A stretch of DNA of 64,000 nucleotides from Elsinoe ampelina (Eukaryota), in the NCBI GenBank assembly GCA_010093995.1, contig ML992503.1, positions 285,662-349,661 of the forward strand, read 5' to 3'. Within the stretch, counting starts at the first letter, position 1, and every line of letters starts with the position of its first letter. Below, in pieces: positions 43,595-51,801 of the stretch. The notes below the pieces were generated by a model. It had not been told where the DNA came from. It was given only the letters and a program-made list of their open reading frames with translations, and made no database searches. The position numbers were made by a program, and so were the translations under genes.

Positions 43595-46500
43595 CTAAGC
43601 CCTGTTCGCGCTCTGGTACATCTCCACCTTGAACGCATCTCCCTCCGCACGAGGCTCTTTGCCCGAGCCATGGTATATCTCCACGTTGAAAGCCAGTTCT
43701 GTTCCCTCCTGACCTGTCCTTGTTCGTCTCCCTTGGACTACGGTGATGACGTCTCCGTGGTAGAGTCGTCCGAAGAGGAGGCGACCTTTCTCGTCTGTCT
43801 TGGTCAGCCGCTTCCCGTTGACATGGATGCCGTGACGGCTCTGCGTCGCTATGGTGCAACCTAGGTCCGGGAATTTGGTCCAGTCCTGGCCGGAATCCGC
43901 GACATCGTCGGTCAATCCGGGGGCGTTAAAGAAGATGATGATGCCACATTTGGGGACGCGGGTGTCGCTCTGATTCTCGTATGCGTATGTGTTGTCCGGG
44001 GCACGGCCCCAAGTAGTGATCCGCTGTGTCAATTTGATCTCGATGTGGCTGAAGGAGTCTGCCGTGGTGACGAGCTGTCCGAGACGGGGAGGTGGGACCA
44101 CGAATTTGGCCGAGGAAGCCAGCGAAGTGGCATCTGTCACCGTGTCTTTCCTCTGACTGCGGATAACCGGAGCGTCAAGGTCATCCTCATCCGATTCTGC
44201 CTTGGTATCTGACGCCTCCAACGGCGCCGATTGCGTAATTTGATCATGAGATCCTGCAGCCATGGCGGCCACACGAGCGAAAGAGTCGAAATGGATAGAT
44301 GAGACAGTGGGATTTGCGGAAAAGTCGTGACCGGACTGTATGGACGCATATTCGGGATTGTGAGTGCTAGGGTCATTGGGATCATACCAGTATGCGGCAG
44401 GAAAGTCTAGCTGAATCTGACGACGGAAGGGTACAGGACGAGGTGTGATTTCGTGAGCCTTTGTTGGTGTCTCCTCGAAAATGTCGCCATTGCTGTCCAA
44501 GTTGGTCTGCTTTCCGTTCGGTGGGTCAGGCGTACGTGGCTCGTTAGCATCTGCTGAAGGAGAGTTGTCGGAACGAGGCGAGTCCATGTTAAGGTCTCTA
44601 ACCATTGACTCAGCTCCAAGCAGACTATTGTTACCGACCTGACGACTCAGAGCAAAAGAGTCTGGTCTGCCTTGTTCTCCTGCAGACTTGCCTAGATGTG
44701 ACGAGCCATTTGACATGTTACCCGAGCTGTGACCAGCGCCATGAACATTGTCCCCGGCATTGACAGCCACAGACCCTGGTTCATTCAGCATCGAAGTCGT
44801 GACCTCGCCGAACAGCATTGGACGACGCGGCTGACCCTGGGATATCCCCTCAAATCTGGCATGTCCACCTGAGCTACTTGATCCGGACGGCTGACTTTGT
44901 GACTTCTGATGCTTGAGCCGTTTCGACTCTCGAGGATCAAGAAAGTCCAGGTCCGAGGAGTCGAAGCTGATTTCTCCTGCACCAAGCGACCCCTCGTCGA
45001 TCCTAAGCTGCGAGAGATCAGGTTCCTCGTTCTCTTTGCCATCAGAGTCCTCTTCCTCCTCATCGATAGCACCGAGCTCGCTCTGGTCCCGCACATCTGT
45101 TCCCCGTTCAACTAATCCATCGAACCAAGGATGCTGCAGGCATTGAGCAGGTGTCGGACGATCCGCCGGATTTGTGTTGAGCATATGGTAGAGAAGGTCG
45201 ATGGCATCAGTCTGTACTCCATGTTCCAGCAGTGGATTGGGATTGAGCAAGGTGTGCATGATCATGTCGAACATACCCTTACCATTGGTGTCCATAACAC
45301 CCTCGAAAGGGGTCTTGCCGCAAAGAGCATACCACAGGACAGCGCCGAAGGACCAGACATCCACAGATTGGCTATAAGAGTGATAAGTCTTCTGGTTGGA
45401 AGCAGTCCTGCGCTGACGCTTGAGACCACCGTTTTGAGCGACATGAGCGTCGTAATGTGGGAAGACCTCTGGAGCACAGTAGAGTAATGTACCACAGAAA
45501 GTCTTTAAGAAAGTTTCATTGTCTTTGACCACTTTGGATAGTCCAAAGTCCGAGAGCTTGACCCAAAAGTTATCGGGATCAGTATTAGCGATCAGGATAT
45601 TGTCTGGCTTGATGTCGCGATGCGTGATACGCTTCGTGTGCAGGTAAGACAAAGCGCTGAGGACTTGGACAGACATGGACTTTGCCATGGATTCGGAAAG
45701 AGGACCGTTGTTGGAGATGTATTGCTGAAGGTCACCACACCCAACAAACTCCATAATGATGTAGAGATGCTTGTCGTGGTCGTGATACTCGACGTACTGG
45801 ACGATGTTTGGATGGCTCAGATCTTTCATGATCTGCATCTCGTTGTCGAGCTTGCGGTCCAGGACACCGTTCTTCATGAACTTGCGCTTTTCAAGTTCCT
45901 TGGCGGCATAGAGAATGCCATCTGCCTTGGTGGCTAGCTGGAAGACGGTCGCGAACGCTCCTTTTCCCAGATGCCCAACCACGTTGTACTTTGAGCCTCC
46001 ATTCCAGCGCATACCCCAGTCGTTCCTGTTGAAAGGCTGACGAGTACCAGGGAGGGTGATGACTCTTGTCGGCACTCCGGCCGGTCTTTGGGGCTGTTGT
46101 ACTGTCTGTATCTGCTTCTCGTGTGCGGCTTGAGCTTGGGCGGCACTAGCAGCCTCAACAGCGGTGACTTCCTGCATATATGACCTGAAATTGTCCTCGT
46201 ACTCTTTCTCGAAGCCATTCCGCTGCGGAATACGGACGATGAATTTGATGACCTCGTCAGGCTTGGAGGATAGAATTTGGATGACCGATCCAGACTTGAG
46301 CATACGGGTGCGAGCAATGTTCAGATTCGGCTTTCCTTGGAGCAGTACGTCGTCGACGAGGGTGCCATTGGTGGATATATCTTGAAGCATGAGGACGCCT
46401 TGGTGGTTCATGAATATGCGGAAATGTATGTTACTGACTCGACGGATAGTATCCGTGTCGAAGATCAGGTCACACTGGTTGATGTTCCGGCCGAAAATGA

Positions 46501-46792
46501 AGCCATTAGCAACATTCTTGACAGGGGCGGAGAAGCGGAGAGCGAGATCCATAGCAACCCTTGGTTCATTTTCTGGTAGGATGAGTTGGAAGTCGTCGAA
46601 TTGCAAGACATGCTTTGGCTGCCGCCTGGCGGTACGGGCAACGATTTCGAGAGCCGCATCCGAGGCAGGGTGCAGAATACAGATCACATCTGCTATGTCG
46701 GCCGAGTCGAGGTCCGAAAAGTGGTTGCCAGTGCGTCGCGGGTCGAAGGCCTTTTGCGTCAACTCTTGCGTCTGGGATGGTACGAATGCCAT
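43595..46792 (-). CDS. RAD53: Checkpoint kinase Rad53/Chk2 (FHA-kinase-FHA); possible 5' extension to 47183
   Basis: N-terminal SQ/TQ cluster (SQTQELTQ), FHA1 (FGRN...SNIH...STNGT), kinase (GKGAFA, AAKE, HRDIKPDN, DFG, APE) and FHA2 (WGR...HGIHVNG). Confidence 0.92.
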   Translation of the reverse strand: MAFVPSQTQELTQKAFDPRRTGNHFSDLDSADIADVICILHPASDAALEIVARTARRQPKHVLQFDDFQLILPENEPRVAMDLALRFSAPVKNVANGFIFGRNINQCDLIFDTDTIRRVSNIHFRIFMNHQGVLMLQDISTNGTLVDDVLLQGKPNLNIARTRMLKSGSVIQILSSKPDEVIKFIVRIPQRNGFEKEYEDNFRSYMQEVTAVEAASAAQAQAAHEKQIQTVQQPQRPAGVPTRVITLPGTRQPFNRNDWGMRWNGGSKYNVVGHLGKGAFATVFQLATKADGILYAAKELEKRKFMKNGVLDRKLDNEMQIMKDLSHPNIVQYVEYHDHDKHLYIIMEFVGCGDLQQYISNNGPLSESMAKSMSVQVLSALSYLHTKRITHRDIKPDNILIANTDPDNFWVKLSDFGLSKVVKDNETFLKTFCGTLLYCAPEVFPHYDAHVAQNGGLKRQRRTASNQKTYHSYSQSVDVWSFGAVLWYALCGKTPFEGVMDTNGKGMFDMIMHTLLNPNPLLEHGVQTDAIDLLYHMLNTNPADRPTPAQCLQHPWFDGLVERGTDVRDQSELGAIDEEEEDSDGKENEEPDLSQLRIDEGSLGAGEISFDSSDLDFLDPRESKRLKHQKSQSQPSGSSSSGGHARFEGISQGQPRRPMLFGEVTTSMLNEPGSVAVNAGDNVHGAGHSSGNMSNGSSHLGKSAGEQGRPDSFALSRQVGNNSLLGAESMVRDLNMDSPRSDNSPSADANEPRTPDPPNGKQTNLDSNGDIFEETPTKAHEITPRPVPFRRQIQLDFPAAYWYDPNDPSTHNPEYASIQSGHDFSANPTVSSIHFDSFARVAAMAAGSHDQITQSAPLEASDTKAESDEDDLDAPVIRSQRKDTVTDATSLASSAKFVVPPPRLGQLVTTADSFSHIEIKLTQRITTWGRAPDNTYAYENQSDTRVPKCGIIIFFNAPGLTDDVADSGQDWTKFPDLGCTIATQSRHGIHVNGKRLTKTDEKGRLLFGRLYHGDVITVVQGRRTRTGQEGTELAFNVEIYHGSGKEPRAEGDAFKVEMYQSANRA

Positions 46793-46971
46793 GTTGTGGC
46801 AGTTTTGACTTACATAGACGTGCTTCGTCGTGAGACCCCCAGCCCTCTCCGCAGTCTTCGCTTGCGTCGCGACGACTGTGAAGTGGGGCCGGGGGTCTCG
46901 GCTTCTGTGCACCCCCTCCCTGATCATCGTCAACGCCGCCCAATGGAACCATCACAGAATGAAACACATAC

Positions 46972-47183
46972 CGCACGCACACCGCGGTGATGCGAGGGTC
47001 CAGTTCGACCCTCTTGTCCTGAAAATTATCAATAAACAAGGCCCCCTCCACCACCGCGGCGGCCTCCACCCTGTTCCATAATCTGGTAGCGGTTGCTACC
47101 GACACAGCGATCTGCTTGCCATCCTTGACGACGGCACCGACGTTCAACTTGCCCCGAATGAGATTGGGGACTTTCTTCGCCAT
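46972..47183 (-). CDS. Upstream exon that splices in frame into the RAD53 ORF
   Basis: ATG in AAAATGG context and 70 protein-like codons. A phase-2 intron 46920..46971 (GTATGT...TTGAC...CAG) joins it to EGVHRSRDPRPHFT in the RAD53 frame. Confidence 0.65.
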
Positions 47184-47925
47184 TTTGTCTGATTCTCTAC
47201 ATTCTACAGTCTATCTCGATCACGCCTCGAGATGGCGAGACATCGTCAAGGTCATCGTGCCTTCCCAGCCAAACTTGGCCACCTGCTGAGGAAAGACCTC
47301 CCCATCATCACCTTCCTTTGACCATCCACAGATTTGACGCTTCCGTTTTGAGCTTAAATCGATGGCGGTCAGCGCGGCAAGTTCTGTTCTTGCGGAGATG
47401 GAAGTGAGACTGCCTCTTCAGGGTAAGATGCGGCTTATCCGGTCACAGTGGCAGCGAGTCATGACCGGTGATGAAATGTGGTAGCCGTTCGCTTCTACGG
47501 ATCCTAGAGTTCATACACTGGCTGGTATCTTATGATGGTCATGATGCAATCGGTGAGCGTAAAGTGTTGTCTTAGCTGGCATGTCAGGGGACGGTGGGAC
47601 GTGTTTCTCCAAACCACTTCTGCGGTACACTGTCGTCGTCTCGGATGTATAAGTAGCGAGGATGGAGATGCCGTGCCGTTCGGCCTCTGTGAAACAAATA
47701 TATTGTCCCTTCCAGGTTGGAAACCTCAATGTGTGTCGTCAAAAGGCATGTCATCCAGCAGGCTTCCGGACAGTTCGGATTGTGTGTCCATACGGCTTCG
47801 TGAAAAATTCCAGTCGCGGTGTCGAAGACTGCTGGTAGCCAACGGAAATGATACCTCGGCGAGTCGTCATCGAGACCAGAGATCGCATCGACGCCGCTAA
47901 CAGACCGAGAGCATGTTGTACTTTA

Positions 47926-49030
47926 TCATGGAGAGGAAGCGAACCATTCATCCTTCAGTAGCTCTCTCGCGGTCGGCCGATCTCTTGGATCTAGCTTCAT
48001 GATTTTAAGCAAGAAATCTCTATCCTCTACGGCCAATTCCTGAGGATCAACGAGACGGAATGGTCTCTTAGCCTCTACAGGTGTGTTCTTCATAATCCAC
48101 GTAAGGACGCCTATTTGATCACCAGTTGCGATTTCTAAGTATGTTTCTGGAAATGGTCCAAAATACTCATAATGCCTCTTGAGAATCCTAAGCGTGTATT
48201 CGTCATGGTCGACAGGCACATCAGGTAGGAAGATATGAATCCCGTCCCCGTAGATGAGACTGATCAGCTGTTACGGATATTAGCTAAGCGCAACAGAAGG
48301 CATTCATTGCGGATTCACACAGACCGTAGTACCGAACGACCACAAGTCAGTTGACTGTTTCCAGCTTATACCTAGTGTGGCTTCGGGACTTCGAAAAATC
48401 GGCGTACCGACTGGGGTCCCACTCATTGCCATCTCACGATTTTGATGCATTGTGGCCTCGAGGTCGGCGAGCTGCACATCAGTGATGCAACCTTTAGCAT
48501 CGAGGTTGACTAAGATATTATTTGGCTTGATGTCTGCGCACGCACTATCAGTGTCGGACGTAAGCGTGTTGAGATTCGAGGAGTCACCTACCCGTGTGTA
48601 TGAAGCCCTCCTGGTGTAGTCTATCAAGAGCTAGCAACACTGTCTTTGCTACAGACTTGTACTCGTGCGTCGTCAATCGCCTGCGGTCGCAAACGCGGAG
48701 GATGTCGCTGTCGAGGTAGCGCAAGACTAAGGCGCTTTCACTATTCTTCCCAACAACGACCTCGTCGAGGAGCCGACGGAATGGTCCACGATCTTGAAAT
48801 CGGAGAAGCATATCCCTCTCGTTTCGGATCCGCCATTCCGGCGCATTTTTGACTATCACAGGTGTCCCAAGGCGCTGGTGTCTGTGAAGAGGAGTGTCAG
48901 CTTAGTCCCGAGTAAATGTACACTGCCGCCGCTGCTTTACTCACGTCGCCTTCCACACGGTGTCCTGCAATCTTGATGATAGCACATATGATCCTAGCCT
49001 TCCCCTCAAAACTTGCCCGAGTTGCAGCAT
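47926..49030 (-). CDS. Fungal Ser/Thr protein kinase-like protein (CMGC-related), 4 exons
   Basis: Introns 48882..48944, 48534..48591 and about 48268..48324. Motifs VIVK, HTDIKPNN, DLE (DFG position), FRSPE, DLWSFG and LDPRDRPTA. Confidence 0.85.
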
Positions 49031-49888: not shown

Positions 49889-51511
49889 CTACTGTTCGAT
49901 CTCGCCGGATGTATCGACCACGACAGCAGCCCAGGGATGACGGAGCAAATCATCTGCTGAAGGTCTCACGACCTGATCCCAGCTGAAGAGATACCTGACA
50001 AAATCCTCGAATGGAGCAGTATCTCTGTTGTGACGCGTCATCGACTTGTACTGCTCCATCTGCTGCTGGAACGTGTAGCTCATAGGGTCATCACGGCGTG
50101 CAGCAGTGAGATGCCCTTCGCCATCTATTATATCCAGCTGCTGCAGACGATCTCGCATGGATCCCGCACGAGGCGGACCAAGGACTTCGACCATGCTCTG
50201 CAATTGCTCAGTCTTCTGCTCATCATCTGTCAGATACTGATCGATAGAGAACAAATCACGGAAGGTCATGAGTCGGTAGATCTGAACCTCTCAGCGAGCT
50301 GATCTAGACCAAATGCCACTTTTGCACCTACCGCGCCGCCTAAAGCCCAGATGTCGGCTTTCTCATCCATGTGATCTGCCAAAAGTAACTCCGGAGCTCG
50401 TAGTATGAGCGGATACGTCTGTCCTCCATCTCCAGCATAATCTATTGTCGATGCTGTCCTTACTGTCAGTCACCAATTCCTGCTAGGCTGGTCTCCCGAG
50501 GACCTACCCGATCCAAAGTCAGAAATGCCCAGTTGTGCTGGCTGAGCTTGACCGGTATAAGTGCTTTCAAGCGAGATAGGCTCGATCAGGTAAGCCGGAC
50601 AGTGTCTTCCGAGTGGTTTACCATCTTCCCTTTCAACATCATATGTCCTCGGCCTCGCCGCCAATGCCCTATCTATCCCGCGTCCAGCTCTCGACTGGTC
50701 TAGGGCAAACATAAAGTTTCCCAGCTGTACATCTAACCACAATCAGCCCACGCCACATCTATACGAGACCGATTCTTTCACCTCTATGCACAAACCCTCC
50801 AGCATGAACATACCTCACCGCCTGAATCATCTTCACCGCCAACCTCCGCATATACTCATAATCATACCTCTCTCTCCCAGTGTTGATCCTATACTGCAAA
50901 TCCCACTGATACTCCCCCAACGTCTGCCCGCCGACCTCCATGACAAGAACATGATGCCTCCCATTCGGACCCTCGTGATCAAACGCCTCTACGAATCCAG
51001 TCGCAACCAGCCCTCTCGCCCGCTCGTCGTTCGTCAGGGAAGCAAGAATCCGCCCCTCTCGCTCAGATAAGTCCGAATCATAAGCCCGTGCGATCTTGAG
51101 AGCGACATACTTCTTCGTGCTAGATTCGTTAGCTACCGAGATCGTGTTGAGGTCAATGTGAAGGGACGGGACATGCTTGATTTGTTTGGCCAACCATACA
51201 GTGGCTGACTTGCCATGGCCTAGTTTGTGGAGGATGTGGTATCGGCTGCCGAGTACGTCGCCGAGATGGACGGGGTGGAACCCGTGGGGGTGGTAGTCGG
51301 AGGGGGATTCGGTGTTGCCTGGGACGTGTTTGTAGACTGGGAAGACGGTCCAGGAGGATCCCTGAGTTGGTGGGTGGTTCGTGGTGTACTGTCTCGAAGC
51401 GAGATGGCAACGAGCAATAGGTCGTATGTGCTTGACTCTGAGCTGACGGGAGGGGTGGGGGTGGTTCGAATGGACCAACTTAAGGTCTCTGACGCATGAC
51501 TTGTAGAGCAT
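49889..51511 (-). CDS. SRPK/Dsk1-like protein kinase, multi-exon
   Basis: YHPHGFHPVHLGD, KLGHGKSATVWLA, VALKI, GPNGRH, HRD (across intron 50733..50781), DFG, RAPE and DIWALG. Further introns at 51120..51176 (GC-AG), 50454..50507 and about 50282..50331. Confidence 0.85.
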
Positions 51512-51801
51512 TGATGATAGTCAGTCACATGAATGCTCGCAGGCCGCTCTGAGTCTTTTGACTAAGCTCGATACGAAAGCGATGATGCAGTCCCCCAGTT
51601 CAGAGCATCCCCCGCGATTGTCTTCATGTGGCAGAGCATGAACCCTGCCACCCCCCACGGAATTGAGCTTTCACATGTCCGGCACGATTATAAGGCGACT
51701 TGTTCGAATACAATTTTATTCCGTCCAAGATGCAAAGGCTATCCATTCTCCATGATATCGCCACCCATCACAGGCTAAAGCTTGGCGTTCACACCATTCG
51801 T

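Follow-up and report, generated by a model that had tools for sequence, protein, structure and literature searches.

Directly upstream of the RAD53/CHK2-type kinase gene of Elsinoe ampelina, within a window of 64,000 nt from contig ML992503.1, we identified a small two-exon ORF whose reading frame enters RAD53 without encountering a stop codon. Judging from its homology and codon usage, this ORF is a real gene belonging to a small, uncharacterised Dothideomycete family, and represents more than an open frame arising by chance. The explanation that we prefer, with a probability of roughly one half, is that the locus consists of two tandem genes, the smaller of which would have lost its stop codon in this lineage, and that canonical Rad53, translated from the ATG at 46792, is probably the main product. 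An extended Rad53 isoform carrying the small domain at its N-terminus, predicted from the spliced frame to measure 1178 aa, is possible but unproven. In the protein collection, the gene set from this genome lacks the upstream gene, an omission that constitutes a caveat for the annotation of this locus.

A preliminary description of this DNA had placed a 52-nt intron in the upstream ORF, followed by a stop-free run into the RAD53 ATG that adds 113 aa to the kinase; inspection of the window sequence, base by base and on the minus strand, confirmed this gene model in all of its parts (Table 1). As an in-frame TAG precedes the upstream ATG, the open frame has no earlier one. The sequence context of this ATG is CAAAATGGC and that of the RAD53 ATG is CAACATGGC, both with A at -3 and G at +4, in keeping with the strong initiation contexts that had been claimed for them. 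The spliced ORF comprises 106 codons, to which the linker adds seven, and the Met of RAD53 is the tenth codon past the last conserved His of the small gene, with no stop between the two. The GTAAGT that follows HVY and the in-frame 42-nt GT..AG interval that begins with it, both of which had been described before, are likewise present in the sequence.

Table 1. Features of the small gene and RAD53, in window coordinates
Feature	Position	Strand	Description
In-frame TAG	47211-47213	-	9 codons upstream of the ATG at 47183
Exon 1, small orphan gene	47183..46972	-	212 nt; 70 codons plus 2 bases, phase-2 end
Intron 1	46971..46920	-	52 nt; begins GTATGT, TTGAC 14 nt before the end, ends CAG
Exon 2, small gene	46919..46814	-	junction codon (R), then EGVHRSRDPRPHFTVV to TTKHVY
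In-frame linker VSQNCHN	46813..46793	-	21 nt, 7 codons, stop-free; opens with GTAAGT
GTAAGT, possible splice donor	46813-46808	-	first bases of the linker
Candidate in-frame intron (hypothetical)	46813..46751	-	63 nt; GTAAGT ... TTGAC at -12 ... AAAAG
RAD53/CHK2-type kinase gene	46792..43595	-	single ORF, 1065 aa plus stop

With the 70 aa of exon 1 as query, phmmer returned eight matches at E ≤ 0.001 among 1.84 billion representative proteins. Half of these were small ORFs of 69–110 aa, the best true match having an E-value of 2.8e-7; the remaining four, proteins of 612–2457 aa that aligned over short stretches only, two to seven per protein, were judged to be false, and they proved repeat-rich where their sequences were fetched. 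A profile built from five sequences, the window's own included, retrieved eight proteins of 69–123 aa with E-values from 1.7e-31 to 9e-15. Two of the profile matches are annotated as spliced hypothetical proteins, namely WHR41_07281 of Cladosporium halotolerans (P0081, 122 aa) and DE146DRAFT_750105 of Phaeosphaeria sp. (P0083, 104 aa), and they bear out the earlier impression that the upstream domain resembles small standalone fungal proteins. The family is patchy, with four of its eight database proteins found among the 1.84 billion representatives, and no paralogue of the small gene was detected by tblastn in the 64-kb window.

Across the five aligned sequences, including that of the window, 14 residues of exon 1 are invariant, and the family signature is present in the window copy as N7, K12, V15, G16, K20, G22, A30, T31, T33, W36, R38, E40 and A43. 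The window gene shares with the family an N-terminal motif following the Met, the motifs VG-x-V-x-K-x-GK and AT-x-T-x-x-W-x-R and, among P0073–P0083, a phase-2 intron after C-x-R together with an exon 2 that opens with [ED]-x-x-H-x-S. Four prokaryote-style ORF calls in other fungi stop 0–6 residues beyond the C-x-R that closes exon 1, as would be expected if the intron is shared and the caller is blind to splicing, whilst P0081 and P0083 continue across the point that corresponds to the exon junction of the window. Exon 2 itself aligned with P0081 in a two-sequence BLASTP comparison directly after ICSR (6/16 identities, E-value 0.002), and the conserved His-x-Ser, followed by H-x-T and then H-[VF], was recognized by eye in P0083 and in the exon-2 frame of a metagenomic relative (L001) as well. 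In codon usage the upstream ORF is coding-like: exon 1 scored 0.239 per codon and the spliced frame 0.176, compared with 0.222 for Rad53 and with -0.39 and -0.16 for the two alternative frames, and among 79 control ORFs of comparable length from the window just six reached the score of the spliced frame.

A single metagenome scan returned three loci, one of which, L001, is truly related to the small gene; the other two, L002 and L003, were dropped as unrelated, being 20-residue pattern matches inside another protein on contigs of 63 % GC. In L001, which was read as contig DNA, the intron lies at the same position and in the same phase as intron 1 of the window. If L001 (positions 699-1400) is spliced at the homologous sites, its junction codon becomes TGA. 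Furthermore, 15 nt past the stop of its small gene there is the C-terminal tail of a kinase, 38 % identical (E-value 9e-18) to the last exon of the gene found upstream of the small gene in the window, and this tail holds an in-frame stop. As such, L001 looks like a decayed and rearranged copy of the same neighbourhood as the window locus.

The C-terminus of the family can be read in three relatives only, P0081, P0083 and the decayed-looking L001. In P0083 the stop lies six codons past the last conserved His, and in the exon-2 frame of L001 it lies 13 codons past this residue. P0081 ends 19 residues past it in a run of 11 K, and because this poly-Lys end looks like a gene model that has run into an A-rich stretch, its true C-terminus is uncertain. 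All three are free-standing and end within some 20 codons of the last conserved His, as would be expected of a family protein of about 100–120 aa, whereas the window copy continues without a stop into RAD53.

With regard to a possible function of the small domain, the suggestion that it binds metal or is nuclease-like found no support in a Pfam family, a solved relative or a fold match. The exon pieces of the window matched no Pfam family, and the eight family members gave nothing in Pfam beyond three single-member matches below the curated cut-off. A sequence profile of the family searched against the PDB had as its best hit an unrelated GATA-3 chain (E-value 0.024). Fold searches were performed with a model of the relative P0083 in place of the window protein: AlphaFold2, given an alignment of eight sequences, predicted a beta hairpin followed by a helix and a further three strands, i.e. 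a compact beta-beta-alpha-beta-beta-beta unit, with a mean pLDDT of 80.6. Foldseek matched this model to no PDB entry at E ≤ 0.001, and VIA-align found none of 48,161 chains at Z ≥ 5, its best score (Z 4.3, for the ToxR periplasmic domain) being well within the noise range stated for that tool. The ESM Atlas likewise offered no usable feature match, and all of its structure rows were at TM ≤ 0.5. Two or three His residues are conserved in the family, and for this reason a nuclease or metal-binding site is still conceivable; the pair of H-x-T motifs known from 2H phosphoesterases was considered and dropped, as the domain is too short and its second motif reads H-V-Y instead of H-x-T. By eye, the exon-1 translation has no N-terminus resembling a signal peptide.

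The canonical Rad53 gene itself is ordinary. Its product contains an FHA domain (PF00498, residues 99–173, E-value 3.1e-11) and a protein kinase domain (PF00069, residues 269–557, E-value 2.4e-66), and one SQ and two TQ sites stand within its first 13 residues, a layout that recurs in the orthologue N-termini displayed. A second, C-terminal FHA domain marks a kinase as Rad53-type rather than Chk2-type; at E ≤ 1, Pfam reported a single FHA stretch in this protein of Rad53 length. Using the first 260 residues as query, we retrieved 69 orthologue proteins, several of which are named rad53 or RAD53 at their source, and which include the exact 1065-aa Rad53 of the window as a called gene. The nearest named orthologue, from Elsinoe fawcettii (P0004), is 83 % identical over these 260 residues and shares the first 14 residues of the window protein from the same Met. 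In 67 of the 69 orthologues a DPRR motif occurs within the first 200 residues (median residue 18, range 11–125), and the statement that Rad53/Chk2 normally begins with its SQ/TQ cluster proved correct, in that the orthologues begin at a TQ cluster. With its N-terminal SQ/TQ cluster, FHA domain and Ser/Thr kinase domain the window gene resembles other fungal Rad53/Chk2 genes, and it differs from them in the 113-codon in-frame ORF of another gene that directly precedes its ATG. We found no literature that joins Elsinoe and Rad53.

The profile of the small family matched none of the 69 Rad53 orthologues even with all filters off (best E-value 1.7), phmmer with exon 1 found no fused form among the 1.84 billion representatives, and a database search for longer fused proteins containing the small domain was equally negative, which the tool's own documentation rates as weak evidence. 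As no fused form appeared in any database searched, a conserved fusion is unlikely. The starts of the orthologues are those of automatic gene models, which are inclined to place the conventional Met, and so this argument bears on a conserved fusion and not on a local one.

Two differences were noted within the N-terminal region of Rad53. The window protein is without a 17-residue segment that is found in its three nearest orthologues, P0004, P0005 and P0006, between QFDDFQ and LILPENEP; the gap falls after residue 69, at about position 46585 on the minus strand, and looks like a real in-frame deletion, since the contigs of four sequencing runs span this place without a gap. At position 46496 the window and one of these runs (X3) have A and the other three (X1, X2 and X6) have G, a strain difference inside the region.

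In our preferred explanation, a separate gene of about 106 codons, with kin that are free-standing elsewhere, would have been deprived, in this lineage, of its stop codon and its 3' end, such that its frame now enters RAD53. Loss of a stop codon can create read-through or the fusion of tandem genes, and the locus resembles such stop-loss fusions in that two neighbours on one strand share a frame while the upstream stop and the spacer are missing; it differs from them in that the joined form is here a prediction from the sequence. The 1065-aa kinase would be the main product, with transcription presumably beginning near its ATG, in which case the RAD53 promoter would overlap the small gene. A transcript initiated at the promoter of the small gene itself would be stop-free until RAD53 and might yield the extended protein as a minor or conditional by-product, except where it is spliced from the GTAAGT to an out-of-frame acceptor. 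In-frame continuity alone is unremarkable once two genes abut: with one chance in three for the frame and about 0.7 for the absence of a stop in seven codons, a stop-free in-frame juxtaposition of this length is expected by our own arithmetic in about a quarter of cases. What is odd about this junction is that the stop is missing and that the spacer has zero length. Besides the automatic origin of the orthologue starts and the small number of readable C-termini in the family, two further observations stand against the tandem explanation. The small ORF is fully intact in its start, splice signals, 14 invariant residues and coding-like codon usage, whereas decay is what one would expect of a gene whose ending has gone, and this intactness argues either for a functional fused product or for an ending that has escaped notice; and a spacer of zero length is unusual, leaving no ordinary promoter space for RAD53.

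A rival explanation is a functional fusion under selection, or a two-isoform locus in which a distal promoter upstream of 47183 drives an mRNA spliced at the 52-nt intron, perhaps also from the GTAAGT over 63 or 42 nt, so that a small-domain-Rad53 protein has a role of its own beside the canonical form. The 113 added codons are free of stops, both ATGs carry the favourable A and G, and exon 1 has kept its invariant residues and its coding-like codons. In addition, enumeration of the GT..AG intervals that begin at the perfect GTAAGT donor gave in-frame intervals of 42, 51 and 63 nt alongside out-of-frame ones, and the 63-nt interval contains a TTGAC 12 nt before its acceptor, much as intron 1 does 14 nt before its end. 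Splicing of this candidate intron would join HVY to AFDPRR and would delete the ATG of RAD53 together with the first TQ sites. Nevertheless, the complete absence of the fused form from the orthologues, the representatives and the search for longer proteins weighs against this possibility, as does the representation of the window's own genome by the 1065-aa form, the Met and first 14 residues held in common with E. fawcettii, which fit use of the proximal ATG, and the frequency with which seven codons of continuity would arise by chance. We consider a selected fusion, with or without the additional splice, to be unlikely. It is likewise doubtful that the small gene is a relic disabled of late by a deletion that would have taken the stop, the 3' UTR and the old spacer, leaving unexpressed DNA that now serves as the promoter or upstream region of RAD53. 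A gene with no stop cannot make a normal product, its family is patchy, and at least one other copy, L001, looks decayed, given its TGA junction codon and the in-frame stop in the neighbouring kinase tail; however, the 106 codons contain no internal stop or frameshift and retain splice signals, conserved residues and coding-like codon usage, and this intactness could be reconciled with a relic only if the loss is very recent.

Another way of accounting for the missing stop is that the small gene is still independent and ends by splicing from the GTAAGT at 46813 to an out-of-frame acceptor in the RAD53 5' region, which would append one or two residues. The donor stands exactly where homology to the family ends, and GT..AG intervals of 49, 121 and 124 nt exist, giving S, QM and M, respectively, each followed by a stop. 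The 49-nt interval, however, is without a branch-like motif, and in the 121- and 124-nt intervals the sole TTGAC lies 70–73 nt before the acceptor, too far for a branch point. Moreover, the Val encoded by the GTA of this GTAAGT matches, by eye, a Val of P0083 and of P0081, two relatives out of three, which suggests that the codon is read as Val and not spliced out, and such a transcript would, in addition, need to terminate within the coding sequence of RAD53. An independent small gene is, on balance, quite improbable. Least credible of all is an assembly error that conceals a stop codon, either at 46813-46807 or within exon 2. Exon 2 does contain error-prone runs of G5, C5 and G5, and positions 46807-46990 are covered by no contig in four of the nine runs (X1, X2, X3 and X6), the contigs of which were compared with the window over 46200-47500, the kind of run being a guess or unknown. 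Even so, the contig of X3 spans 46200-46806 with zero differences from the window, and by our own reading a gain or loss of one base in the A4 run would give no nearby stop. Homology in the current frame reaches the last residues of exon 2, where the window's G-x-T-x-K-H-V-Y-V aligns by eye with ...GKTVHVPV and ...GKITHFLV of relatives, which makes a frameshift error inside exon 2 unlikely. None of the contigs of these four runs has a joint or loose end over 46200-47500. On the RAD53 side the contigs end at 46806 (X3) and at 46763, 46758 and 46761 (X1, X2 and X6, respectively), and on the upstream side at 46991, 47159, 47178 and 47274. These ends would fit a RAD53 mRNA that starts near 46806; as gaps and contig ends are not in themselves evidence on expression, this is only a lead.

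The boldest proposal for the locus is that an orphan gene was captured through stop loss as a new N-terminal domain of Rad53, the extended kinase being expressed from a distal promoter in certain conditions. We regard this as improbable; were it true, and were the 63-nt splice used, the extended kinase would be without its first TQ phosphorylation sites, and a checkpoint kinase would have acquired a lineage-specific regulatory module whose fold is unlike those of solved structures. Should the long form be made, it would represent a recent, datable gain of a domain by a core checkpoint kinase via stop loss in its neighbour, and it would provide the first functional lead, in DNA-damage signalling, for a group of orphan proteins that lacks a family assignment, a structure and an annotation. 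If it is not made, what would stand is the caveat for annotation and an example of a promoter that overlaps the coding sequence of a neighbouring gene. We view the locus as a curiosity that may, with modest probability, reflect a genuine and recent acquisition of a domain by a checkpoint kinase.

Further upstream of the small gene, and also on the minus strand, lie two kinase-like genes with introns, at 47926-48901 and 49889-51520. The stop of the first of these, at 47926, is located 742 nt before the ATG at 47183, and an ORF piece of the same gene contains the sequence DIKPNNIL.
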